Virus record (IMG/VR): IMGVR_UViG_3300035673_000078
Span: 1-44,818 of that record
Origin: a virus
Lineage: Duplodnaviria; Caudoviricetes
Length of the DNA: 44,818 nucleotides
Direction: 5' to 3' (one strand)
Numbering within the stretch: position 1 is the first letter of the stretch; every line of letters begins with the position of its first letter. The position numbers and the translations under genes were made by a program. Below, one piece after another: positions 528 to 44,610 of the stretch. Under the pieces are notes generated by a model. The model had not been told where the DNA came from. It searched no databases and saw nothing but the letters and a program-made list of their open reading frames with translations.

Positions 528-1736
528 CTAGCCTTTTTTTTGCTCGTTTATTTGCGGCGAGTTAGGCGCGCTTTCAGCCGCGATATCCACGTCTTCCACA
601 GTTTGCACAATGGGCCGTGGACGCGGGAACTCAAGGGTCTTCATGGCTTCCTGCTTGGGACGGCGCCGGATGGACGAATAATCCTTCCACTCCTGCTTGC
701 TGACGTGGCCGGCACTTTCAATGATCGTGCGCTCGCTGATTTCCGGGTTCTCCAGGAGCCGGGTGAGAGCGATGTGGCGCATGTGGCGCATCTGCAGATC
801 AGGCATGCCGGCCTTTTCGCGGAGCTGGTCCCAGGCGGTGCGCCATGATCCCATGGGCTTATTCAGATCGTAAGGATGGCCGCTGTTGAGGGTGCGACCA
901 GGCAGGATGTAATGCTCAGGATCGGGCTGGACTTTGAGCATACGGCAGATGCGGTAGTACCGCTTCAATATGTGCCCCAGAGCCCAGAAAGCGTTTTCAT
1001 TGAGTTCGGCTACGCGATCGCGATGCTCGTTCTTGAGACCATCGCGTATCCGCATGGTGCGCTTGGCCAGGTCGATGTCATTGAGGTGGAGGTGGCAGAC
1101 TTCACCGCGGGCGGAGCAGGTGCTGATTTGGAGCATCGATCCCCAATAGGCCACGCGCCAGCGAGCATTAGAACAGGCAACCATGAAAACGCGCGCGAGA
1201 TCTTCGTCTTCGGGGACTTTGTTCTCCAGCTTCTTCTTGGGCAGCTTGGGCGGTTTGTAGTCGACCTTGATGGGCTCCCAGAGGCCGCCGCGATCCATGA
1301 TCTGGCTGAGCATGCTGATCTCTTTACGCACTGAGTTGGGGCCAACCAGCGCGTTGAAATTCAATACTTCCACGCCGGGAAGCTCGCGCTGCTGCGAGGT
1401 TGTAACCTTGCGCGGCATTTGCAGCCGCATATCCACGTAACACTGCACGTGGCCGATGTGTATTTCATTGAGCGGGAAGTCGCCGAAGAACATAAGCAGC
1501 GGATTCAGCATATAGCCATAATCGCGCAGCATTTTTGGGCCGATGCCCTCTTTGTGCTCTTTTAACCAGAGCGGAGCAGCATGCTTGAAATACAGGAGAC
1601 CAAACTTCTTGGGCTCAAGCTTGTCTTCGCGGGCCGCATTGCAGACTGGGCAGTTAATGCGTCCGTTCGAATCGGGGCGGTGATCGTGACCTAAGGGCAA
1701 TTTGACTTCCCGGGGAGGTCCGTATGTTTGGGCCAA
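528..1736 (-). CDS. int: Tyrosine recombinase / phage integrase
   Basis: 402 aa; box I-like STCSARGEVCHLHLNDIDL, GLKN, HMRH (HxxR), AGHVS and catalytic Tyr in KDYSS; adjacent to the att site. Confidence 0.92.
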   Translation of the reverse strand: MAQTYGPPREVKLPLGHDHRPDSNGRINCPVCNAAREDKLEPKKFGLLYFKHAAPLWLKEHKEGIGPKMLRDYGYMLNPLLMFFGDFPLNEIHIGHVQCYVDMRLQMPRKVTTSQQRELPGVEVLNFNALVGPNSVRKEISMLSQIMDRGGLWEPIKVDYKPPKLPKKKLENKVPEDEDLARVFMVACSNARWRVAYWGSMLQISTCSARGEVCHLHLNDIDLAKRTMRIRDGLKNEHRDRVAELNENAFWALGHILKRYYRICRMLKVQPDPEHYILPGRTLNSGHPYDLNKPMGSWRTAWDQLREKAGMPDLQMRHMRHIALTRLLENPEISERTIIESAGHVSKQEWKDYSSIRRRPKQEAMKTLEFPRPRPIVQTVEDVDIAAESAPNSPQINEQKKG

Positions 1737-1782
1737 TGGCAGCTCTTTCTAAAAGGGACTGCCAAGGGGGCGGTGAGTCAGA

Positions 1783-1812
1783 TTAGTACAGCAACTCGGA
1801 ATAGATTGTCAA
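1783..1812 (-). promoter_or_regulatory. Putative integrase promoter
   Basis: Perfect TTGACA on the minus strand (1812-1807) in an AT-richer intergenic region; the -10 match is weak (TGTACT/TACTAA). Confidence 0.4.
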
Positions 1813-2083
1813 GCCATCGCGCGGAGATGCATCTAGATTACTAATTACCAACCATTTTCGGAAACTAGAACGGCATTGCATTCAGCCTGGGGCAACTAGC
1901 GGATTGTAAAGTGTTTCGATAGATCACCAGGTACAGGGACTTTAGGAAAGTAAACCATTGCATGGAGCGGTCGGAAAAGAACGGAGCGACGGGCCCAACC
2001 GCCGCCCCGATTCCAGTGCTTGGCGCCCTGGCGGGTGCCAATCGGAGCATAGCACGGCTAAGAATTGCTAACAAATTTTGTCG

Positions 2084-2113
2084 TTGACGCGGGCGGGTAC
2101 TCTGGATTAGGGT
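2084..2113 (+). promoter_or_regulatory. Putative rightward (late-region) promoter
   Basis: TTGACG-N18-TAGGGT upstream of the first rightward ORF. Confidence 0.4.
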
Positions 2114-2217
2114 CAAGGCTCCTCCCACATAGCTTTATTCCTTCCCAAAGCTGCACCGGTCCGCGCCGCGGTGACGACACAGGCGTGGCATTCGCATCTG
2201 ACGGCGGTAGCTCACCT

Positions 2218-2559
2218 ATGTCCAGGAATAAAGTCTGCGTGCTCCGGGATCCTCTGGAGATTGAAGCTCTTTCCAGGTTGGAGTACTTCAAGCACGCGAT
2301 TCTAGCCCGCTACATCACGAATGCCGAAGCATCGATAGAATTCCAGCCTTTTGCGGGCAATCTGCCCGATTGCGATCACCACATCCACAAGACCAAGCGC
2401 GAAGCCAACCGGCTGGAGCGCCAGGGCTGTCTCCATTTTCTGCCCGGATTTGAGGACCATTACGCGCAGGAGCAGAAGCGCGATTGGAGCGTGTTGCCGC
2501 GGGCCTGGCAGAAGCGTCCGAGCGGCGGTGTGCACGTGATGCAGCTGGTGGAAGCGTGA
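2218..2559 (+). CDS. Hypothetical phage protein
   Basis: Part of ORF 2065..2559; the ATG at 2218 lies downstream of the putative promoter; GTGA overlap with the next gene. Confidence 0.6.
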   Translation: MSRNKVCVLRDPLEIEALSRLEYFKHAILARYITNAEASIEFQPFAGNLPDCDHHIHKTKREANRLERQGCLHFLPGFEDHYAQEQKRDWSVLPRAWQKRPSGGVHVMQLVEA

Positions 2560-2885
2560 GATGGCTGAAATATTTCAGTCGGAAGCGCTCGACCGAGCGG
2601 TCAGCAATTAGTCGCCTTTCTGGGACAGGTATTTGCGCGATCAAATTTGGAGACCAGCAGGTTTTTCCAGTCTACGGAGCGAGCGGCGGACTTCAGGCCG
2701 CAAACATCGCGTACCTGACGGTAGGAGCTATTCCTCGGAACTATGGGGGAGATTTGGGCCGCAGTGAACGCTGCCCAGGATTCACGATTCGAGATGGCAT
2801 CGCTGCTGTCGAGTGGATCCCGAACACAGATCCTTGGCCGTTGTTCGAGAAGGCAGTACAGGCACTGAGAGGGATGCATGGCTGA
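2556..2885 (+). CDS. Hypothetical protein containing a major-capsid-like segment
   Basis: GTG start overlaps the previous stop; contains FGDQQVFPVYGASGGLQAANIAYL, 14/24 identical to the capsid segment encoded at 18481..18552. Confidence 0.6.
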   Translation: MRWLKYFSRKRSTERSAISRLSGTGICAIKFGDQQVFPVYGASGGLQAANIAYLTVGAIPRNYGGDLGRSERCPGFTIRDGIAAVEWIPNTDPWPLFEKAVQALRGMHG

Positions 2886-3273
2886 GAAGATCACGATCAA
2901 GGAAGTGAAGTTTGCGCAGAAGGCATGCGCGGATGCATCGGCAAAGACGAAGGAAGCCGACAACCTGAACGAGATCAAAGCCGCCGCGATGATGGGAATA
3001 TTTGAACGGCTGCTGGGTGTGAAGTCGATGGACGACGTGGCGCGCTGCTCGCCGGCGGACATTGCCGGGATCGCCAAGCGTCGGCTGAAGCGCGGCGACG
3101 TGGAGTTGGAAGGCTTTGATCTGGAACTGCTGTTGAAGGTGATCAAGCAGAGCCAGTGCAAGCGGAACGTGAGCTGGAAAGACGAGTTCGTCAAGGCGCT
3201 GGGTGAGTCGAAGGCGACAGAGATCATCAACTCGACGCCGGAGCGGTACAGCTACAAAGCGGTGATGGTGTGA
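2878..3273 (+). CDS. Hypothetical phage protein
   Basis: 131 aa, RBS-like GAGGGA, GC3-rich codons, overlaps neighbours. Confidence 0.75.
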   Translation: MAEKITIKEVKFAQKACADASAKTKEADNLNEIKAAAMMGIFERLLGVKSMDDVARCSPADIAGIAKRRLKRGDVELEGFDLELLLKVIKQSQCKRNVSWKDEFVKALGESKATEIINSTPERYSYKAVMV

Positions 3274-3407
3274 ACAGAAAACGTTTCAAAGCAATCCGCG
3301 CGCTGGCAAACATCCTGAAGAAGCGGTACGGCTATCGTCGGCGGGAACGCTGGCAGATCGCAAGGATGCAGTACGAGCGGCAAAGAGCTGGAACCGCCAC
3401 GCGGTAA
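3270..3407 (+). CDS. Small basic protein, 45 aa (not in ORF track)
   Basis: GTGA overlap with the upstream stop; MNRKRFKAIRALANILKKRYGYRRRERWQIARMQYERQRAGTATR; fills the gap. Confidence 0.5.
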   Translation: MNRKRFKAIRALANILKKRYGYRRRERWQIARMQYERQRAGTATR

Positions 3408-3478
3408 CAATCGAGGAAACCCTTGATGGATGCTGATAAAGCGAGAGCGAAGCGGCGGCATGAGAGGTTTGGGGAGCT

Positions 3479-4138
3479 GTGGGCCTTCGTCGGCGGCCGC
3501 GGCGCGAAAGAATTGGTTGTGCCCGTGAATGCGGACACAGCGCCGGCGTTGGAGGGATTTTGGTCCCTGGTGAATTACAGGCTGAACGAGGCGCCGGCAA
3601 GGGTAAGAAGGTATCGTCGACCAAGAAAGCTGAAAGGCTGGCACTCTTCGTCGCTGAATACCTGATTGACATGAATGCCACCCGAGCGGCGATCCGCTGC
3701 GGGTATGCGGCCAACTCTGCCGCGGTGACAGCCAGCCGGCTGATGAAGGATCCGTGGGTCAAAGCGGAGCTGAGACGCGCGCTGCAGGAACGCAAGAAAC
3801 GGTTGAAGCTGACTGCGGAACGGTTCGATGAAGAAGTGGCCAAGCTGGCTTATTCGAACGTGCTGGATTACTGGGACCGCGCAACCGGTGGAATCAACCT
3901 GGCGGCGGTGGATCGGGACCAGGCAGCAGCGATCTCAGAGCTGAAGGTCAACACTATCGAGCTGCCGGCGCACGGTCCGGCTGACCAGTTTGGGAACGGG
4001 CCGGTGCTGATATCGCGTACGGTGAAGTTCAAGACTCACAGTAAGCCGCAGGCGCTGATGCTGATGGGGAGACGGCTCAAGCTGCTGAAGGAAGAAGTTG
4101 AGCTGAAGGGCAAAGTCACTCTCGTGGTGGACATGTGA
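3479..4138 (+). CDS. terS: Terminase small subunit (start possibly TTG 3560)
   Basis: FVAEYLIDMNATRAAIRCGY...ASRL signature of HTH-type TerS; directly precedes TerL; GGAGG lies just upstream of TTG 3560. Confidence 0.9.
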   Translation: MGLRRRPRRERIGCARECGHSAGVGGILVPGELQAERGAGKGKKVSSTKKAERLALFVAEYLIDMNATRAAIRCGYAANSAAVTASRLMKDPWVKAELRRALQERKKRLKLTAERFDEEVAKLAYSNVLDYWDRATGGINLAAVDRDQAAAISELKVNTIELPAHGPADQFGNGPVLISRTVKFKTHSKPQALMLMGRRLKLLKEEVELKGKVTLVVDM

Positions 4139-4139
4139 C

Positions 4140-5834
4140 ATGGGCCTGGTTGTCGCCGATCGCACTCTCCGGCTCTCTGAGCTGATCACGCCACATGAGC
4201 GGCAACGCGCATGTTTAAAGGCGCTGGAAGAGTTCTCGTACGTTCTTTACGGTGGCGCGGCGTTTGGAGGCAAGAGCCACCTGGCGCGATGGTATCCCGT
4301 GATGCTGGTGGTGAAGTGTTTTGCTCTTCACCAAGTGCGGGGAGCGAAATCGTTTCTGTTTTGTGAAGACTTTCCGGCATTGCGAGCGCGGCACCTGAGC
4401 GTGTGGGACGTCCCGAAAGAGCTGGGCACGATCGGCAAGAGCGAGACGGAAGGCCTGCGCTTCAAGCTGGTGGACGAGCTGGGCGGCGGCATGGTGCTGC
4501 TGGGCAACCTGGACGATCCCAGCAAGTACGACTCGGTTGAGTTTGTTGGCGGCGCGGTTGATGAATGGACGCGCAATCGGTGGGCGGTATTTGACCACAT
4601 ACGGAAGAGGCTCAGAGCGGCGATCATTGCCGGCGAGCCGCATTTGCCGTGTGGCGGACAAGCGGCCAGCAGGCCGTTATATCAAGGCGGCAAGCTGATC
4701 CGGGAAGCGGTGAAGATCCCGTGCCCGATCGAGCTGCACCACACGATTCCGGCGTGGAACTTCACGATCCTGAAGACCACGAACCCGGGCGGTGAGTGCC
4801 ACGCGGAGACGAAGCGAGTTTATGTGGATCCGGCGCGCGGGGACTGGTCAAACTTTCCCAGCGAGCTGGAGCCAATCAAGCACAAGTTCTTCTTTGTGCC
4901 GGCGCTGGTGAGTGACAACCCGTTTGCTCCGGAAAGCTACAAGCGGGACAACCTGGACACGCTGCCGGAAAAGATGCGCAAGGCATATGCCGAGGGAAGC
5001 TGGGACGAGTTTGAAGGGCAGTACTTCTCAAACTTTGACCTGGCGAAACGGCAGCTATCGCCGGCGCAGATTGCCGAGCTGGTGAACGAGTGGGACCCGC
5101 GGTGGGGAAGCTGGGACTGGGGCTTCACGCATCACGGCGTCTTTCAGTGGCATGTGGTCACGACGGTCACACCAAAGCAGGCGGCGGAAATACTGGGCCG
5201 GGCGGATGGCGAAGGCAATCCGCTGTGGCTGGCTCCGAAGAAGGTGATGGTCACCTATCGCGAGCTGGTGAAGAGCGGGCTGTCGGAACGAGCGTTTGCG
5301 GAGCAGATAGTCACGGCCACGCCGGTGCAAGAGCGTGGGCAGCTCAATCACATCTTCCTGAGTCCGGAAGCTTTTGGCGAGCGCAAGGCGCAGTTCAAGA
5401 ATTCAATCGCGGATGAGGTGGGCGAGGTCCTGACCAAAGCAGGCATGCCCTTCCCGACGCGAGCAGATAACGGCCGAATCAACGGTTGGCGATTTATGTA
5501 CGGCCTGATCGATCGGGATGAGTGGTTTGCATCGGCCAGGTGTCCGGTGCTGCTGAACGCGATCCCGGTGCTTAAGCACGTGGATCCGAACAAGGGCGAA
5601 ACGGGCGACGAAGAAGACGTCCTGAAGACGGAAGACGTTTCCGACGATGCCGCGGACTGCTGGCGATACGGCGGGAAGTCAATGCTAGCGCCGGGGAAGA
5701 AGCCGCTGCATGCCGAGCGGGCTGAGCTGCTGAGTCAGTTCGCCGATCCGCACGCGCAAAGCATGGTGGACCGCATGTTCATGGAAAAGCAAAAGGGCAA
5801 GCGGACCAGGTCGATCAATTTGAGGCGCAGATGA
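4140..5834 (+). CDS. terL: Terminase large subunit
   Basis: Walker A YGGAAFGGKS, Walker B GAVDEW, TTNPGG coupling motif, nuclease DWGF and DDAADCWRY. Confidence 0.93.
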   Translation: MGLVVADRTLRLSELITPHERQRACLKALEEFSYVLYGGAAFGGKSHLARWYPVMLVVKCFALHQVRGAKSFLFCEDFPALRARHLSVWDVPKELGTIGKSETEGLRFKLVDELGGGMVLLGNLDDPSKYDSVEFVGGAVDEWTRNRWAVFDHIRKRLRAAIIAGEPHLPCGGQAASRPLYQGGKLIREAVKIPCPIELHHTIPAWNFTILKTTNPGGECHAETKRVYVDPARGDWSNFPSELEPIKHKFFFVPALVSDNPFAPESYKRDNLDTLPEKMRKAYAEGSWDEFEGQYFSNFDLAKRQLSPAQIAELVNEWDPRWGSWDWGFTHHGVFQWHVVTTVTPKQAAEILGRADGEGNPLWLAPKKVMVTYRELVKSGLSERAFAEQIVTATPVQERGQLNHIFLSPEAFGERKAQFKNSIADEVGEVLTKAGMPFPTRADNGRINGWRFMYGLIDRDEWFASARCPVLLNAIPVLKHVDPNKGETGDEEDVLKTEDVSDDAADCWRYGGKSMLAPGKKPLHAERAELLSQFADPHAQSMVDRMFMEKQKGKRTRSINLRRR

Positions 5835-6145
5835 ATCGACGTGATGCACTTAAAAGTCTGTGCGTTCTAGCTGGTTCGGCACTCTTGCCAATCGCTCTGA
5901 TTGATTTTGAAGGCGAACCACGAATTTACGACCACAGCCTACAGGCCGCAGGCTGGTCCTGGGACGAGAGTGGGTTGATGTCCCGCAATGGGCAATCGTT
6001 CTTCCCGATGTATGCACAGGACGGCAGTTTAATGACCGGGATACATTCTGGCGTGTTCGCGGCTTACTACTATCGTGGCAATGGCGTCGTCGAATGCCTG
6101 ACAAAGACCTATCCAGAAATCCGCGATTTGATGCGAATGTCATGA
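5831..6145 (+). CDS. Hypothetical protein with twin-arginine-like N-terminus
   Basis: MNRRDALKSL followed by a hydrophobic stretch; ATGA overlaps at both ends. Confidence 0.65.
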   Translation: MNRRDALKSLCVLAGSALLPIALIDFEGEPRIYDHSLQAAGWSWDESGLMSRNGQSFFPMYAQDGSLMTGIHSGVFAAYYYRGNGVVECLTKTYPEIRDLMRMS

Positions 6146-7892: not shown

Positions 7893-8354
7893 TTGAGTTC
7901 GCTTGATGACATGGCGGTATATGTGTTTGTCCGGCAGGATCTGAGTGAGCAGGATCAACGCATCCAGATTGCCCATGCCGTCCTGAAGATGGCCACCATA
8001 TTCAACCCAGCCGACGCGAACTATCGCATCGTGGAACTCGACGGTGGCGAGAGCAAGAAAGCATTTGATCGCACTGTTCGCAAGATGCCAGAACGCGGTG
8101 TCGCTCATGTGATTTACCAAGATTCAGATCGCCCAGAATGGGGAGACACAGCGATATCTACCATTCCCCTTGCTGGACGGCCGTTGCCGCACAAGTTGCG
8201 GCGTTATTCCCCGCCTGCCGAAGCTAGCGCGGCGGTGGGTTCAAAGCCCAGCGGGGAGCCATGCTCACATAGCTCAGAGAAAGAGCACCAGCCTACGAAG
8301 CTGGAGGTCGGTGGTTCAATTCCATCTGTGAGCTCCATTTTGAACTGTTCGTAA
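7893..8354 (+). CDS. Peptidyl-tRNA hydrolase type 2 (Pth2/PTRHD1)-like protein; last ~48 codons overlap tRNA-like elements
   Basis: YVFVRQDL...QIAHA...RIVEL...QDSD...GDTAISTIP follows the Pth2-fold motif order; GAGGAG RBS before the TTG start. Confidence 0.7.
   Translation: MSSLDDMAVYVFVRQDLSEQDQRIQIAHAVLKMATIFNPADANYRIVELDGGESKKAFDRTVRKMPERGVAHVIYQDSDRPEWGDTAISTIPLAGRPLPHKLRRYSPPAEASAAVGSKPSGEPCSHSSEKEHQPTKLEVGGSIPSVSSILNCS
8208..8261 (+). ncRNA. 54-nt D-arm-less tRNA-like element ending in CCA
   Basis: Acceptor-like stem TCCCCGC/GCGGGGA + G + CCA; T-like arm TGGG-TTCAAAG-CCCA; one other arm CTGCCG/CGGCGG with loop AAGCTAGCG. Confidence 0.6.
8263..8337 (+). tRNA. Phage tRNA, anticodon ACG (Arg), atypical body
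   Basis: GCTCACA/TGTGAGC acceptor stem, GCTC/GAGC D stem, CCAGC-CTACGAA-GCTGG anticodon arm, GGTGG-TTCAATT-CCATC T arm, T-CCA end. Confidence 0.88.
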
Positions 8355-8400: not shown

Positions 8401-10164
8401 ATGAAAAAGATTCTGGCGACATTTTGTGCCTGGCTGATGCTGGCCGGGCTGGCACCGATGACGGCGCCATTTGCATTGGCGCAGTCAACGATCGGCGCGT
8501 CACGCGTGGCGGGCCGCTTTGTTGCGGTGAACTATAACTACGGCGCTTCAGCTCCGTCGATGGGCTTTGGCAATCCCGCGGGGCCCAGCATTCCGCCGTT
8601 GCGCATCTTCAACGGCAATTCCGCGGCGGGAGCAGGGACAATCACGCTGGCTAGCGGCTATATCACCATGCCGGACGGCCGCACGTTCTTTCCGCTGTGT
8701 GCCGGCTCGACGGTAACCGGGTCGATCACCTGCGGAGGCGCAACGCCGATCACGGTGAATCCGGGCGGATCCAATTCTGAGACAGTCACGCCGACCGCGG
8801 TGTCCGGCTGCAACCTGTTTCCGCAAAACGCCAGCGCTCCTTCATGCCAGGTCACGGCGACATTCGCCAACGTGCATGCCCAGGGCGAGTACGTTGCTTC
8901 AGGAAGCGCAGGCCTGCAGGAAGCGATCAATGATGCGATCGCGTCGGGCGGAGGCATGGCGGTAATCGATACGCTATGGACCAAAGCCGGCGGCACGCAA
9001 GCTCTGGCCACGGCCTGGACCGCTCCCAGCGGATCAGTGGGCGTTGCGGTGGAAGATCAGCGCAGCGCGAACTTCGGCTACCTGGTTCCGGCGCCTGGAC
9101 TCACGCGCATTGCGGCTCCGACCGCGCTGACCACGGCTGCCACGGCCACGCTGACAACTGCGACCACCGGCGGCACGATCGCCACGGCGCAGACGCCGCG
9201 ATTTACCGTTACGGCGGTTGATCAGTTTGGCGGAGAGAGCGCCGCAGCGGATGATTCAGGCGCAACCGCAACTCTGGTGGACGGCGCCGGCTCAACGAAT
9301 AGTTACACGATCACCGCCGCGGGCGTTCCCACCGGCACTGGAATCGTGGGCTATCGCCTGTACGTCAGTGCCACGGGTGGCGCCACGCAAACCGAGACTC
9401 TGGCGGCCGCCGCACAAGTAAGCGGAACCGCTGCTCCACTCTGTCCGCTGCCTGCCTGCTGGGCCCCGGGCGTGGCGATTGTATTGACCGCCCTGCCGGC
9501 GACGACCGCTGCCGGTCCTCCGCAGGGAACCGCCGCCGCTGCAACTTCTCTGGCTTCGGCTCATACCACGGTGGTGATCAAGCAAACGGGAATCCCTCCG
9601 ACCATGCTTCCGTTCAACGATACGGCAGCTCCGGGATTCTTCCCGGTGACTGTGACTTCCGCCACTACGCTGGCCGCGGGCTTTGATGTGATGGGCGAGC
9701 TGCAGTATCAGGCGGGCTTCTTCAACAACCTGGGCGGCAAATATCAGATCTGCGGTGGCGGCGTGACAACGCCTTCAGCCGCGACCGTGGCGGGAACGTG
9801 GGCGCTGCGTATCGGGCCGCGAGAGAATTCAGCCGGCACGTCGGGCGAGCACATCGCCGTTCCCTGGGGATTTGTGGCATCGCGGCAATGGACCGCCGCG
9901 GCCAGCGTGTTCACGTTCTGTACCGATTTGACGGTGACAACCATAGGAACGTCCGGCGTGGTGGAAGGCGGCGCCTCGAGCTTCTGCGTGGTAGTGGCCG
10001 CGGGCGATGATGGCGCCGGTGTGGATACCTGCGTCGGCGCGTTCAATGCGGCGGCAACGGCGACTGATCTGACCGCCCAGGGCGTGATCCAGCTGTCATA
10101 TGTGCAGACGGCCGCGAGCTGGACCGTGCCACAACTGCGGTACCTGACGATTCGCAAGCTGTAA
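8401..10164 (+). CDS. Ala/Thr/Gly-rich beta-rich virion-like or exported protein with Sec-type signal peptide
   Basis: MKK + hydrophobic core + ALA cleavage motif; GLQEAINDAIASGGG resembles tailspike neck motifs; Fn3/Ig-like segment (TVTAVDQFGGES...GYRLYVS). Confidence 0.75.
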   Translation: MKKILATFCAWLMLAGLAPMTAPFALAQSTIGASRVAGRFVAVNYNYGASAPSMGFGNPAGPSIPPLRIFNGNSAAGAGTITLASGYITMPDGRTFFPLCAGSTVTGSITCGGATPITVNPGGSNSETVTPTAVSGCNLFPQNASAPSCQVTATFANVHAQGEYVASGSAGLQEAINDAIASGGGMAVIDTLWTKAGGTQALATAWTAPSGSVGVAVEDQRSANFGYLVPAPGLTRIAAPTALTTAATATLTTATTGGTIATAQTPRFTVTAVDQFGGESAAADDSGATATLVDGAGSTNSYTITAAGVPTGTGIVGYRLYVSATGGATQTETLAAAAQVSGTAAPLCPLPACWAPGVAIVLTALPATTAAGPPQGTAAAATSLASAHTTVVIKQTGIPPTMLPFNDTAAPGFFPVTVTSATTLAAGFDVMGELQYQAGFFNNLGGKYQICGGGVTTPSAATVAGTWALRIGPRENSAGTSGEHIAVPWGFVASRQWTAAASVFTFCTDLTVTTIGTSGVVEGGASSFCVVVAAGDDGAGVDTCVGAFNAAATATDLTAQGVIQLSYVQTAASWTVPQLRYLTIRKL

Positions 10165-16987: not shown

Positions 16988-17292
16988 AGATTTTACGGGG
17001 GTGTAAAGATTTAGCCGTCATTGTCAGAGGGATCCGGACACCCTTCCTGCGGGAGAAACCGGGGCAGCGACGGCGGGCCAGGCGATCAGGCCAAAAATCG
17101 CGTAATCGCATTTTAATGCGTTTATGCGAGTTCGCAGGCGGGGCTACCGCCTTAAGAGAGCGAGACTGAAAGTCCTTCCCAATCGTCCCCACCTCGCTCC
17201 GTAGCTTGCTGTCAGGGACAACAACGTCAGCACGGTCCAGGCTGTAAACAACGGACACCTGGCAAGCCCAAATGCACACGCTCGACGTGTGC
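16978..17292 (+). ncRNA. Candidate structured RNA / capsid mRNA leader
   Basis: About 300 nt without a convincing ORF, packed with stems and three potential pseudoknots found by eye. Confidence 0.5.
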
Positions 17293-17304: not shown

Positions 17305-18633
17305 ATGTTCAATTTAATGCGGCTCCTGCGGGGCGTCTCGCTTATTCAGCTGGGCAACTGGCTGATGGGCGCGTTCAGCTTCTTCGTTCAGGGCCAGAAC
17401 GCACAAACAGTCGCGTATCAGCGTGAAGAGCTGGGCAAGGACATCCACTTGCTCTTCCAGCGAGACTCAACCCTTTACGGTCGAATCCAAAAAGGGAAGA
17501 ACCTCACGGAAATCAGCTCGCGCGCCATGCGCATCCCGGCAGATCTACTGGCGGGCGGAATCTTCTCCCAAGTTAACCCCGACGGCGGCGATTTTGGCCG
17601 TGGTTCGGCGATCACTTCTGATTTCTTCCAGGTCACCAGCGTGTACTTTGCGCATGCGACCGAGTGGAGCAAGCTGGCGGAGAAAGCCACCGACAGCGAC
17701 AAGAAAGCCGTTGCGCCCGCAGCCAAGCGCAACCTGGAAGCTGCCACCAAGCAGATCCGGACCAACATTGAGGCGCTGCTCAACACTGACGGATCGGGCA
17801 CGCTGGATACGATCGTCAGCGTCTCCGGCAACACCTTAACCGTCAACAACGCCAACCAGTTTTACGATAACCAGCCATTGCAGATCCTGCCGTCCCTGGG
17901 CGGAGTCAGCCGCGGCAACGTGCAAGTGCTTTCGGTCGACGCGAACAGCAAGCAGATCATCCTGAACAATGCCGCGCCGGCCGGTACCGCCGCCAACGAT
18001 CTTCTAGTGATCGCGGGCGCTCCGGGCATCGCGGCTTCGTCCTTGTTCGGCGTGCGCACCTTCCAGGTCGACAGCAACACTGGAACGTATCTGCAGCTGG
18101 CGCGTTCGGCGTATCCGGGCAAGCTGAAGACACCGCACATCGCCATGAACGGCCAGGCGATCACCCCGCAGGCGGTCCGCGCCGGCGAGATGATTTATCG
18201 CCGTGCGTTGGGCGTGGACTCAACCGATCTGCAGGGCGCCGTCGCGCATTTGGGCGTGGACCAACTGCTGGCGTGGGAGAACGTGGGCCTCGTCGTCAGC
18301 CAGGTGATCCAGAACCAGATGAGCGGTAACCGCTCTGAGAACATGCTGAAGGAAAAGCCGCCCGGAGATCTCGGGCCGTTCCCGATCCTGCTCAGCAATC
18401 ACGCAAAACCCGGCGTGATTGACGTGCTGGGCCTCAAAAACTGGGGCCGCGCTGAAACCCAGCCGATCGAGGACCTGGATTACGGCGGACAGACCTTCTT
18501 CCCCGTTTACGGCGCGTCCGGCGGCGTGAGCGGCGCAACCATCAACTACATCTGGACCGGTTTCCAGGTGTACAACGCCAACCCCAGAGCTGGAATTTTC
18601 TGGGACGGCGCGGCAATACCGAACAGCTTGTAA
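17305..18633 (+). CDS. Major capsid protein (start uncertain; ORF opens at 17272)
   Basis: ~440 aa after the scaffold gene; capsid-like layout with an inserted beta domain; strongly biased codons. Confidence 0.8.
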   Translation: MFNLMRLLRGVSLIQLGNWLMGAFSFFVQGQNAQTVAYQREELGKDIHLLFQRDSTLYGRIQKGKNLTEISSRAMRIPADLLAGGIFSQVNPDGGDFGRGSAITSDFFQVTSVYFAHATEWSKLAEKATDSDKKAVAPAAKRNLEAATKQIRTNIEALLNTDGSGTLDTIVSVSGNTLTVNNANQFYDNQPLQILPSLGGVSRGNVQVLSVDANSKQIILNNAAPAGTAANDLLVIAGAPGIAASSLFGVRTFQVDSNTGTYLQLARSAYPGKLKTPHIAMNGQAITPQAVRAGEMIYRRALGVDSTDLQGAVAHLGVDQLLAWENVGLVVSQVIQNQMSGNRSENMLKEKPPGDLGPFPILLSNHAKPGVIDVLGLKNWGRAETQPIEDLDYGGQTFFPVYGASGGVSGATINYIWTGFQVYNANPRAGIFWDGAAIPNSL

Positions 18634-18745: not shown

Positions 18746-19231
18746 ATGAAGAAAGAACCAGCAGTAAAAGACACGCGCAGGTTTGCGCAAGCTGACCAAA
18801 CGCCGCCGACAACGGATATCGCGACTGTGCCGGGGATGTCGCTCGAAGGCCGCGCAGCGCTGGCGGAAGCGAGCCCGGGCGCGGAGTTTGCGGTTGCGCC
18901 GATCGTCTCGGCCAACGCGATCGCTGAGATCAAGAAAGTTGTCGACGAATACAAGATCAGGCCGCCGCGCGGCTGGATCCTGATCAAAGAATTGCCGGCG
19001 GCTGAGCGGATCGGGCTGATCCTGGTACCGGAAGTCTGCCAGGAGCCGCCGAAGTTTGGAATTGTGATCGCCGTCGGCGCAGGCGAGTGGCAGATGGGCC
19101 ATGAAATCCCTCCGGAAGTAAAAGCCGGAGACCACGTCACGTTTGCATCGTTCGCCGGGGAGCAGCGCGAGATTCTGGGCCAGAAGCTGATCCAGATGCG
19201 CACCGACGAGATCATGCTGATCGCGGGGTAA
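18746..19231 (+). CDS. groES: GroES/Cpn10 co-chaperonin with ~70-aa N-terminal extension
   Basis: IRPPRGWILIK...GLILVP...GIVIAVGAG...EVKAGDHVTFASFAG...IQMRTDEIM matches Cpn10 motifs. Confidence 0.9.
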   Translation: MKKEPAVKDTRRFAQADQTPPTTDIATVPGMSLEGRAALAEASPGAEFAVAPIVSANAIAEIKKVVDEYKIRPPRGWILIKELPAAERIGLILVPEVCQEPPKFGIVIAVGAGEWQMGHEIPPEVKAGDHVTFASFAGEQREILGQKLIQMRTDEIMLIAG

Positions 19232-23569: not shown

Positions 23570-24097
23570 TCAAGGGCGAGCCAACTCGCGTACCAACTGA
23601 GAGCGAACGATAGAGTCTGCAATCTCGCGGTCTTTACTGCTCATTGCCAGATCAGAATCGATCTGGGAAAAAGTGGTTTCCAGTCGTTGGAGTTTGTATG
23701 CGGAGCGATAGATTTCAAACGCCAGGTCAATGTAGGGCTGGTACCCGTGCCCGAAAATGTCTGTTTCCAGGATGGTCCGGGAAAGAAGTTTTTCGGCTTC
23801 CTCGGCGCGCTTCCGCTCCTCCCTTTTTTCGCTCTGGTGGTTTTCATGCTTGATGTCGCGGGCTCTTTGAAGGTCGGCACGGAGAGTCTGCATTCTCGCA
23901 ACATACTGCGGGTTGTTCATGGCCGCACCGATTAGCGTGGCTGCGATCTGGGCCACTTGCCGAGCATGTGCATCGACCGACGGGCCTGTTTGTTTGGGAA
24001 TGGCGGCCTCCGCGCCGGCATATTCGATCTTTTGACCGATGTACCAGAACGCATAGACCGCGAAGAAGCAAAGAATCAGGAATTGGTAGAGAGCCAT
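23570..24097 (-). CDS. Membrane-anchored hypothetical protein (moron-like)
   Basis: AGGA RBS; N-terminal TM segment and helical body; inverted relative to the late genes. Confidence 0.7.
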   Translation of the reverse strand: MALYQFLILCFFAVYAFWYIGQKIEYAGAEAAIPKQTGPSVDAHARQVAQIAATLIGAAMNNPQYVARMQTLRADLQRARDIKHENHQSEKREERKRAEEAEKLLSRTILETDIFGHGYQPYIDLAFEIYRSAYKLQRLETTFSQIDSDLAMSSKDREIADSIVRSQLVRELARP

Positions 24098-38908: not shown

Positions 38909-39741
38909 GCTTTCTCCGTTCTCACCTTGGCCGGCGTGACCGACTCCACCGGCTTGCGGCTTGCCAGCCTCGATTGATAACTTTCCATGGCCAGTTCCTT
39001 CGCGACGTGCTCCCAGATCCCGGCATCGAGCGCGGCGGCATAGACCGTGTCGCGCCAGTCTTCAGCCAGGTCTGCGTCCGTCCAGCCGTAAGTGTTGCGG
39101 CCGCCCCGGCCTTCTTTCACCTGCTCAAGTTTGGCGTTCAGCTTGGCCAGCAGATTCGGGTGGAGTTTTCCCCAGGCTGACTTCCCGGACTGATCACCAC
39201 CATCAGCCGTTGTGGTGTTTTTAACGGTGTAAGAACGGTTCTTAACGGTCTTCCTTATTGCGTGCTCGAAAATTTCACCCCTGACGTTCGAAAATTTCAC
39301 CCCTGACCTATCAGGAATTTCACCCCTGACGTTCGAAAATTTCACCCCTGCGGACGGCGTGCACAAGGAATCCACAGGCTGAGCTGTGGAAGTTGCGGAT
39401 TTCCTGACATTGGCAGAAAAAGGCAGCTGAACATTCAGCCGATACGTGGCCGGAACATGCTGGCGCTCCGGCTCCGTCTGTACCAGGTGGCCCAGCGCCT
39501 GCAGCTCGCGCAGGATCTGCTGGACGCGGCGTTCGGATTTCAGCCCCGCCTTCTTCGCCACCGTGGCGATGGAAGGCCGTGAACCGGTGCCGTCCCAGTA
39601 GTTTGCGTGCTTGGCATACACGATCATCACCGCCTGCAGCCTGACCGGCAGGGAAAGACCGTAGATCCACTCGAGTAAAACACCCAGACCATGACTACCT
39701 TTCTTCGCACTGCCCGCGGACGACGCTGAATTCGTTGACAA
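38905..39741 (-). CDS. Replication initiator-like protein with N-terminal winged HTH
   Basis: SRPSIATVAKKAGLKSERRVQQILRELQALGHL...YRL; contains internal iterons as lambda O-type genes do. Confidence 0.8.
   Translation of the reverse strand: MSTNSASSAGSAKKGSHGLGVLLEWIYGLSLPVRLQAVMIVYAKHANYWDGTGSRPSIATVAKKAGLKSERRVQQILRELQALGHLVQTEPERQHVPATYRLNVQLPFSANVRKSATSTAQPVDSLCTPSAGVKFSNVRGEIPDRSGVKFSNVRGEIFEHAIRKTVKNRSYTVKNTTTADGGDQSGKSAWGKLHPNLLAKLNAKLEQVKEGRGGRNTYGWTDADLAEDWRDTVYAAALDAGIWEHVAKELAMESYQSRLASRKPVESVTPAKVRTEKA
39221..39350. repeat. Putative replication origin: four iterons plus adjacent AACGGT repeats
   Basis: AATTTCACCCCTG at 39271, 39293, 39316 and 39338 (period 22/23/22 bp); three AACGGT copies within 39221-39252. 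Confidence 0.85.
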
Positions 39742-44453: not shown

Positions 44454-44520
44454 TGGAAAGTCCCTTTCCAGCGTTCAACGGGGAAAAACTTATCAGTTGC
44501 TTGCGGGTCGTACAGGAAAG

Positions 44521-44565
44521 CTACTGATTAAGAGTCAGTTGCTCTGCCAGTTGAGCTACGCGCCC
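44521..44565. repeat. att core, right copy; 5' 45-nt fragment of tRNA-Lys
   Basis: Identical to 246..290; lacks the T arm and 3' acceptor strand. Confidence 0.95.
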
Positions 44566-44610
44566 TTTGTCAGGGAATCATCGATGAGGGACGTCACAGG
44601 AAGCAGTATC

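Follow-up and report, generated by a model that had tools for sequence, protein, structure and literature searches.

Bacterial immune sensors aim at capsid and terminase proteins because phages cannot easily mutate these, and terminase is sensed by Avs proteins. A capsid-derived interference protein is also found in the satellite SaPIbov5, where Ccm is a whole homologue of the HK97 fold. In the staphylococcal Thoeris system, ThsB1 is described as needing the capsid E-loop in order to bind, and ThsB2 as needing the P-loop in order to be recruited (PMC12578639, accessible part). Avs7 is described as contacting the A-domain, the P-domain and the E-loop of the capsid (PMC13581612, accessible part). 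Within the shell, P-loops are reported to meet at the three-fold axes and the E-loop to touch the P-domain of the neighbouring subunit (10.1101/2022.09.09.507160, accessible part). Here we describe small phage genes which carry copies of what are predicted to be these loops on otherwise unrelated proteins.

The window, i.e. the whole stretch of 44,818 nucleotides that was analysed, is the complete genome of a temperate soil phage of 44 kb. An integrase is encoded at 528-1736 and the attachment site is located in a tRNA-Lys(CTT) at 215-290, with a matching repeat at approximately 44520-44567. A terminase and the phage's own capsid are both encoded in the window, which separates it from satellites of the capsid-interference type (Ccm/Sid) that are without head genes of their own. 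For this donor capsid, 171 homologues were recovered at E <= 0.001, related capsids P0002-P0008 show 76-95% identity, and none of 50,697 records of isolated phages contains it. Six of the nine genome loci bearing a relative belong to Acidobacteriota and the host is therefore likely to be an acidobacterium, as judged from these related sequences. One run (X1) matches the window across 2354-3582 and is possibly the window's own source. Other features noted were a tRNA-Arg(ACG) within the late region (8263-8337), a Tlde1-domain protein (Pfam PF10908, 10715-11104) that is a probable cell-wall enzyme, a 175-residue opposite-strand gene without a family match amid the tail region (23570-24097) and short direct repeats, possibly iterons, in a replication-initiator-like gene (39266-39349).

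The gene under study, ORF 2556 (2556-2885, plus strand), encodes a carrier of capsid loops with 109 residues. Its GTG start overlaps the stop of the preceding gene and its own stop overlaps the next gene, and it looks operon-coupled. No plus-strand sigma-70-like site was found in the region 1700-3600, and the minus strand held one against 0.7 expected. An 8-bp direct repeat flanks the cassette on the plus strand, with the right copy (2878-2885) forming the start of the downstream gene and the left copy (2561-2568) containing an ATG. The start of ORF 2556 is uncertain because this nearby ATG opens only 16 codons. In a relative, represented by one contig at a depth of 2.8, 127 different bases replace the stretch 2559-2876 and the slot is thus variable. 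The GC3 of ORF 2556 is 0.555 compared with 0.72-0.81 in its neighbours. With its patchy presence between conserved genes and its atypical codon use, ORF 2556 is an accessory, moron-like gene.

The residues encoded at 2646-2717 had been matched in the earlier note to capsid residues encoded at 18481-18552. We observed 14 of the 24 residues to be identical and the quoted codons to be correct, and at 43 of 72 identical nucleotides the claim of a copy at the protein level, not a recent DNA duplication, holds as well. FPVYGASGG is the sole exact match of nine residues in a six-frame translation of the window besides the attachment repeat and the replication-gene repeats. The local alignment of ORF 2556 with the capsid scores 82, where 2000 shuffles gave a mean of 30.8 (sd 4.9, maximum 55). 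An HMM of 121 capsids, run on 1322 frames, matches ORF 2556 at E 2.6e-8. The match spans 2637-2726 (plus strand, including 2646-2717) and covers HMM positions 365-394, which form the predicted P-loop hairpin and the strand that follows it. Just 30 of the 417 HMM positions are matched, so that ORF 2556 is not a full-length capsid homologue. The remainder of the protein had been considered unlike the capsid, which needs a small correction as residues 64-69 match the predicted E-loop tip at five of six positions. This second copy (residues 62-70, 2739-2765, plus strand) is weak when taken alone (shuffle p 0.028).

Outside its loop, ORF 2556 has weak similarity to other carriers (E 0.009-0.07). 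Over its first 30 residues, none of the frames showed similarity to another carrier, and a frameshifted N-terminus was found to be without support. No homologue of ORF 2556 was found among nine candidates, nine stretches or, at E 0.001, 1.84 billion proteins, and no family of Pfam, PHROG or NCBIfam matched at E <= 1. The ESM Atlas gave no usable match to ORF 2556 and only TM values under 0.5 for its relative P0126, neither of which proves novelty. The AlphaFold model of ORF 2556 was poor (pLDDT 49.6) and was left unused. A lack of intact homologues had been named beforehand as a sign against a functional gene, and half of this applies here, in that the searches with ORF 2556 found nothing closely similar over its full length.

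The major capsid protein is encoded at 17365-18633 on the plus strand (the longest ORF starts at 17272) and is predicted to have an HK97 fold that includes an insertion domain. By sequence, it has no match in the PDB under E 0.5. Its model (pLDDT 81.8) aligns with the A-1(L) capsid 7f38 over 305 residues (Z 21.5, rmsd 3.8) and with HK97 1ohg over 255 residues (Z 16.7, rmsd 2.8), and the predicted fold spans most of the chain. Mapping of the copied motif on this model, as had been proposed, places it in a hairpin between two long C-terminal strands (360-370 and 388-404; source segment 18475-18552, plus strand), which is a P-loop by topology. The source of the E-loop tip (17578-17604, plus strand) lies at the end of the loop that joins strands 55-62 and 84-102, again by topology. 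The copied pieces are therefore named as predicted P-loop and E-loop tip from the strand order of the model, the fold comparison having given ranges and not residue pairs. Immediately 3' of the capsid gene, a phage GroES homologue is encoded (18746-19231), which is extended by 70 residues at its N-terminus. We also noticed a capsid gene with an in-frame stop inside the P-loop at L025:11134-11140, and likewise in L173 and L218, which are perhaps one assembly.

Copies of two loops on one protein were also observed in other carriers. A profile search with 12 carriers recovered 12 proteins from 1305 candidates, four of which were the queries themselves. Two of the database proteins, P0131 and P0132, hold a P-loop copy which is followed at the C-terminus by a near-exact E-loop tip (HMM E 3e-5 and 2e-7 respectively). 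The E-loop copy of P0132 is cut by the stop of the protein, where a 9-column score misses it (p 0.98) but the HMM finds it. In L025, a weaker match to the E-loop tip follows the P-loop at the same position as in ORF 2556. Its p value of 0.006 and the p value of 0.028 for ORF 2556 are both generous, since the E-loop-tip motif had already caught attention when the scoring was done.

Carriers of the P-loop recur among related phages. A 34-residue P-loop HMM built from capsids only was run on 83,625 frames from 261 loci (2.68 Mb, with 252 capsid frames), where the unpublished genome G101 contributes to the denominators only. At E <= 0.14, after a capsid tail piece in L025 and weaker matches over this value were dropped, twelve distinct non-capsid ORFs remained. 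All of them are located on the capsid strand in frames of 104-214 codons, and frames of 95-220 codons hold just 23% of the residues in non-capsid frames. In the DNA covered, a P-loop ORF was present in 11 of the 121 capsid clusters (95% clustering). Of the 69 clusters that are represented by 10 kb of DNA or more, 11 have a P-loop ORF and 16 have some piece of capsid or terminase. When whole virus records were searched, additional copies were recovered from 6 of 50 records in one search and from 2 of 48 in another. The carriers occupy almost all gene junctions in the head operon without one fixed locus, and most of them overlap or abut the adjoining start or stop codons, while some adjoin the phage GroES gene. 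No carrier was found among 401 Acidobacteriota genomes, two of which have the capsid, or among five host genomes. Prophages of this phage group are present in Granulicella, and these too showed no carrier. A possible third copy in the window, at 8677, was rejected as it has no match to the loop HMM.

The choice of donor was also observed to be specific. In a screen of HMMs of 30-residue windows over 21,862 small frames, the 39 capsid windows gave 17 off-gene matches, i.e. eleven to the P-loop, three to a second loop (residues 245-256) and three others. One of these (L064:4192) was dropped because it is a capsid-gene start separated from its gene, which leaves 16 of the 17; this gene start (L064:4192-4527) lies approximately 660 bases ahead of its remainder, with a possible intron or insertion between them. 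The 46 terminase windows gave two off-gene matches and both are to Walker A. Nine other conserved proteins gave zero to three matches each, the best at E 4e-4, with two weak antisense matches for portal, none for scaffold and 0, 0, 3, 2, 1, 0 and 0 for the seven other genes. Seven window matches to protein 29580 were dropped as they were read as short orthologues. The HMMs of these controls contain fewer rows (26-120 compared with 309) and their reach is therefore lower. The P-loop window ranks 33rd of 399 in conservation, and windows that are better conserved have no such matches. Separately, a short ORF of approximately 52 residues after the terminase at L040:1302-1502 was found to copy capsid residues ~11-57, and it matches its own capsid at E 1e-9.

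A second carrier of the same capsid segment is located in the window at 5831-6145 (plus strand, 104 residues), directly 3' of the terminase large subunit, and is matched by the capsid-family HMM at E 0.0085. Its P-loop copy (5975-6037, plus strand, E 0.0027) is a variant from another capsid subtype and is preceded by a twin-arginine-like leader. This leader is common to 14 ORFs that include 5831 and exclude ORF 2556, and it consists of an RR-x-F/A-L pattern with a hydrophobic stretch. Six of the 14 leaders match the Tat signal model TIGR01409 at 12.7-16.0 bits, below its cut-off of 16.7 bits. The cargo is the P-loop in three of these ORFs, the 245-256 loop in four (one at E 0.003), an A-domain helix in three (one by homology only), the E-loop tip in one and terminase Walker A in two (one duplicated), with one weak case. 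A capsid or terminase origin was thus traced directly for 12 of the 14, through a homologue for one and weakly for one. The two leader ORFs with terminase Walker A are L042:10624-10923 and L047:11766-12215, the latter with a tandem duplicate in L047. In L045, L047 and L042, a single slot after the capsid gene is occupied by cargo of one of two kinds, P-loop or Walker A, and the flanks of this shared slot are 85-91% identical between L045 and L047. Beyond such shared slots, no flanking DNA common to the leader ORFs was found. The second carrier type has a constant leader with swappable cargo, taken from other capsid loops or from the terminase Walker A. GC3 is below that of the resident capsid in 12 of the 14 leader ORFs. 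Three leader ORFs (L023:8197-8616, L026:13062-13394 and L015:12916-13572) are inserted within the late operon in antisense orientation, for which expression in the lysogen fits better.

Six comparisons between carriers, in which ORF 2556 is not included, gave dN values of 0.20-0.59 and dS values of 1.4, 2.4 or saturated, which shows purifying selection on the pairs tested. In an eight-member carrier family, the G-Q and F residues of the loop are invariant and the synonymous sites are saturated. The expectation in the earlier note that the loop copy might co-vary with the cognate capsid was not borne out, as the test was not significant (mean rank 0.37, Fisher P 0.19). In this test, the capsid of a relative was substituted for that of L025, whose own gene has the stop in this segment. 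One row, L262, does track its capsid (rank 3.5 of 182). The copy in ORF 2556 is identical to other capsids of the family at 17 of 29 positions and to the resident capsid at 14 of 29, with the resident capsid at rank 61 of 182. At the DNA level, the best match of ORF 2556 to any capsid scored is 53 of 87 nucleotides, and a 33-nt core is identical at 30 positions to the capsid gene of another phage. The loop of ORF 2556 may derive from an unsampled donor.

We consider that carriers of the ORF 2556 type would act as decoys for immunity that senses capsid or terminase, a reading which we hold at about even chance. Accessory mini-genes of 68-170 residues carry in-frame short copies of the capsid or terminase loops of their phage group, and they would be expressed with the late operon. 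The carrier would then bind the host immune sensor of the copied loop without completing its activation, and this occupation of the sensor would protect the phage. The decoy reading was chosen on the precedents of Thoeris and Avs7 together with the presence of ThsB-type TIR domains in the order to which the host likely belongs (29 of 201 genomes), which indicates opportunity only. The element types that ORF 2556 and its relatives are predicted to copy, P-loop and E-loop, are those sensed by a Thoeris system. A decoy, an assembly modulator and a superinfection inhibitor had all been offered in the earlier note. Of that interpretation, the copy at the protein level is supported, as is a recurring class of such genes, the covariation is not, and among the three functions the Walker A cargo favours the decoy. 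In our analysis, cargo from both capsid and terminase would fit the ligands of sensors better than a role in assembly. A wider form, to which we give somewhat less than an even chance, is a modular library of self-epitope decoys, where small constant carriers, one of them with a twin-arginine leader, present interchangeable copies of conserved capsid and terminase loops read by bacterial pattern-recognition receptors and the two-part mimics are included. That the leader additionally drags bound sensors to or through the membrane is speculative and very improbable.

Several observations count against the decoy reading. A copy of a ligand could activate the sensor rather than block it, and a Tat-type leader would remove the protein from the cytoplasm, which is the site of the sensors. 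As far as the accessible part of the Avs7 report goes, recognition of shape is broad and lies mostly in the A-domain, and mimicry by a short loop may not be sufficient there. The low GC3 of the leader ORFs, the antisense position of three of them, the fewer rows of the control HMMs, the uncertain start of ORF 2556, its lack of a close homologue and its 30/33-nt core were also counted against this reading. Plain one-off debris is unlikely because the carriers form a recurring class of small genes, some of them under purifying selection.

The 33-nt core match to another capsid gene counts in favour of an explanation in which microhomology recombination would move short pieces of capsid and terminase genes into small morons, where they are kept for their good folding, so that their origin says nothing of their function. 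The 8-bp repeat around the 2556 cassette, the different filler in the relative, the low GC3 and the missing close homologue of ORF 2556 are all consistent with such non-specific gene birth, and conserved segments are also the easiest to detect, which biases a search toward conserved loops. However, the P-loop window is only 33rd of 399 in conservation and the better-conserved windows are left unmatched, all 12 P-loop matches fall into long frames that run in the direction of the capsid gene, the loop residues of the eight-member family are invariant over saturated synonymous sites, and hardly any donor is a portal, scaffold or tail gene. We regard this explanation as quite unlikely. Conflict between phages is unlikely to a slightly smaller degree. 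Here prophage-expressed carriers would be dominant-negative, capping the growing shells of superinfecting relatives or blocking their terminase. The copied loops are reported as assembly contacts, at the three-fold axes for the P-loops and from E-loop to P-domain (10.1101/2022.09.09.507160, accessible part). The copies resemble other capsids above the resident one, as the rank of ORF 2556 illustrates, and the three antisense carriers fit expression from a prophage. On the other side, the majority of carriers run in the same direction as the late operon, with ends that overlap the start or stop codons of their neighbours, so that they would be made together with their own capsid, to whose loop they are as similar (14/29), and a short Walker A peptide would be a poor assembly poison.

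A third explanation, which is improbable, makes the carrier an assembly helper or minor virion protein that binds its own capsid at the three-fold sites, where it would serve as chaperone, size regulator or decoration. The location in the head operon, in some cases beside the phage GroES gene, and the composite contact surface formed by P-loop and E-loop tip would suit such a role. Its patchy occurrence in 11 of 121 capsid clusters, the variable position, the failure to track the resident capsid and the terminase cargo on the same leader argue against it. Weighing these points, we retain the decoy as the preferred reading of ORF 2556 and its relatives.

In the full texts searched, mainly of open-access papers, we found no description of phage mini-proteins that copy loops of their own capsid. 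If phages do make expendable copies of the loops that are sensed, this would be an anti-defence class not found in the literature searched, and the list of cargo would, under the decoy reading, be a map of the surfaces sensed by host immunity even in uncultured hosts. If the carriers instead act against superinfecting phages, they would represent a new peptide-mimic route by which phages block each other's assembly. In either case, the screening of small ORFs with short-window HMMs of core genes is applicable to any phage group.

Among known systems, Ccm is similar in being a capsid-related protein that acts outside the normal role in the shell, but it is a whole fold encoded in a satellite, whereas the carriers are pieces of 10-40 residues on unrelated proteins inside the phage itself. 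The HK97-fold capsids of A-1(L) (7f38), Mic1 (6j3q) and HK97 (1ohg) share the fold of the donor, while the carriers hold loops only. Ocr of T7 is likewise a small phage mimic that serves as a decoy against defence and is able to trigger defence itself, as described in the accessible part of the report, although it mimics DNA and the carriers mimic the phage's own structural protein with homology in sequence (PMC12409349). Avs7/Dsr1 also sense core phage proteins and touch the P-domain and the E-loop, but they recognise a whole fold, mainly the A-domain, and binding of short loops is not reported in the accessible part of that work (PMC13581612). The Sau-Thoeris system consists of a host sensor and its true ligand in another host phylum and capsid family, and no phage decoy is named in the accessible part of its report. 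Its determinants in Mhp of phage 80alpha, a capsid protein with the HK97 fold, are nevertheless the E-loop and the P-loop, the two elements that the carriers are predicted to copy (PMC12578639).
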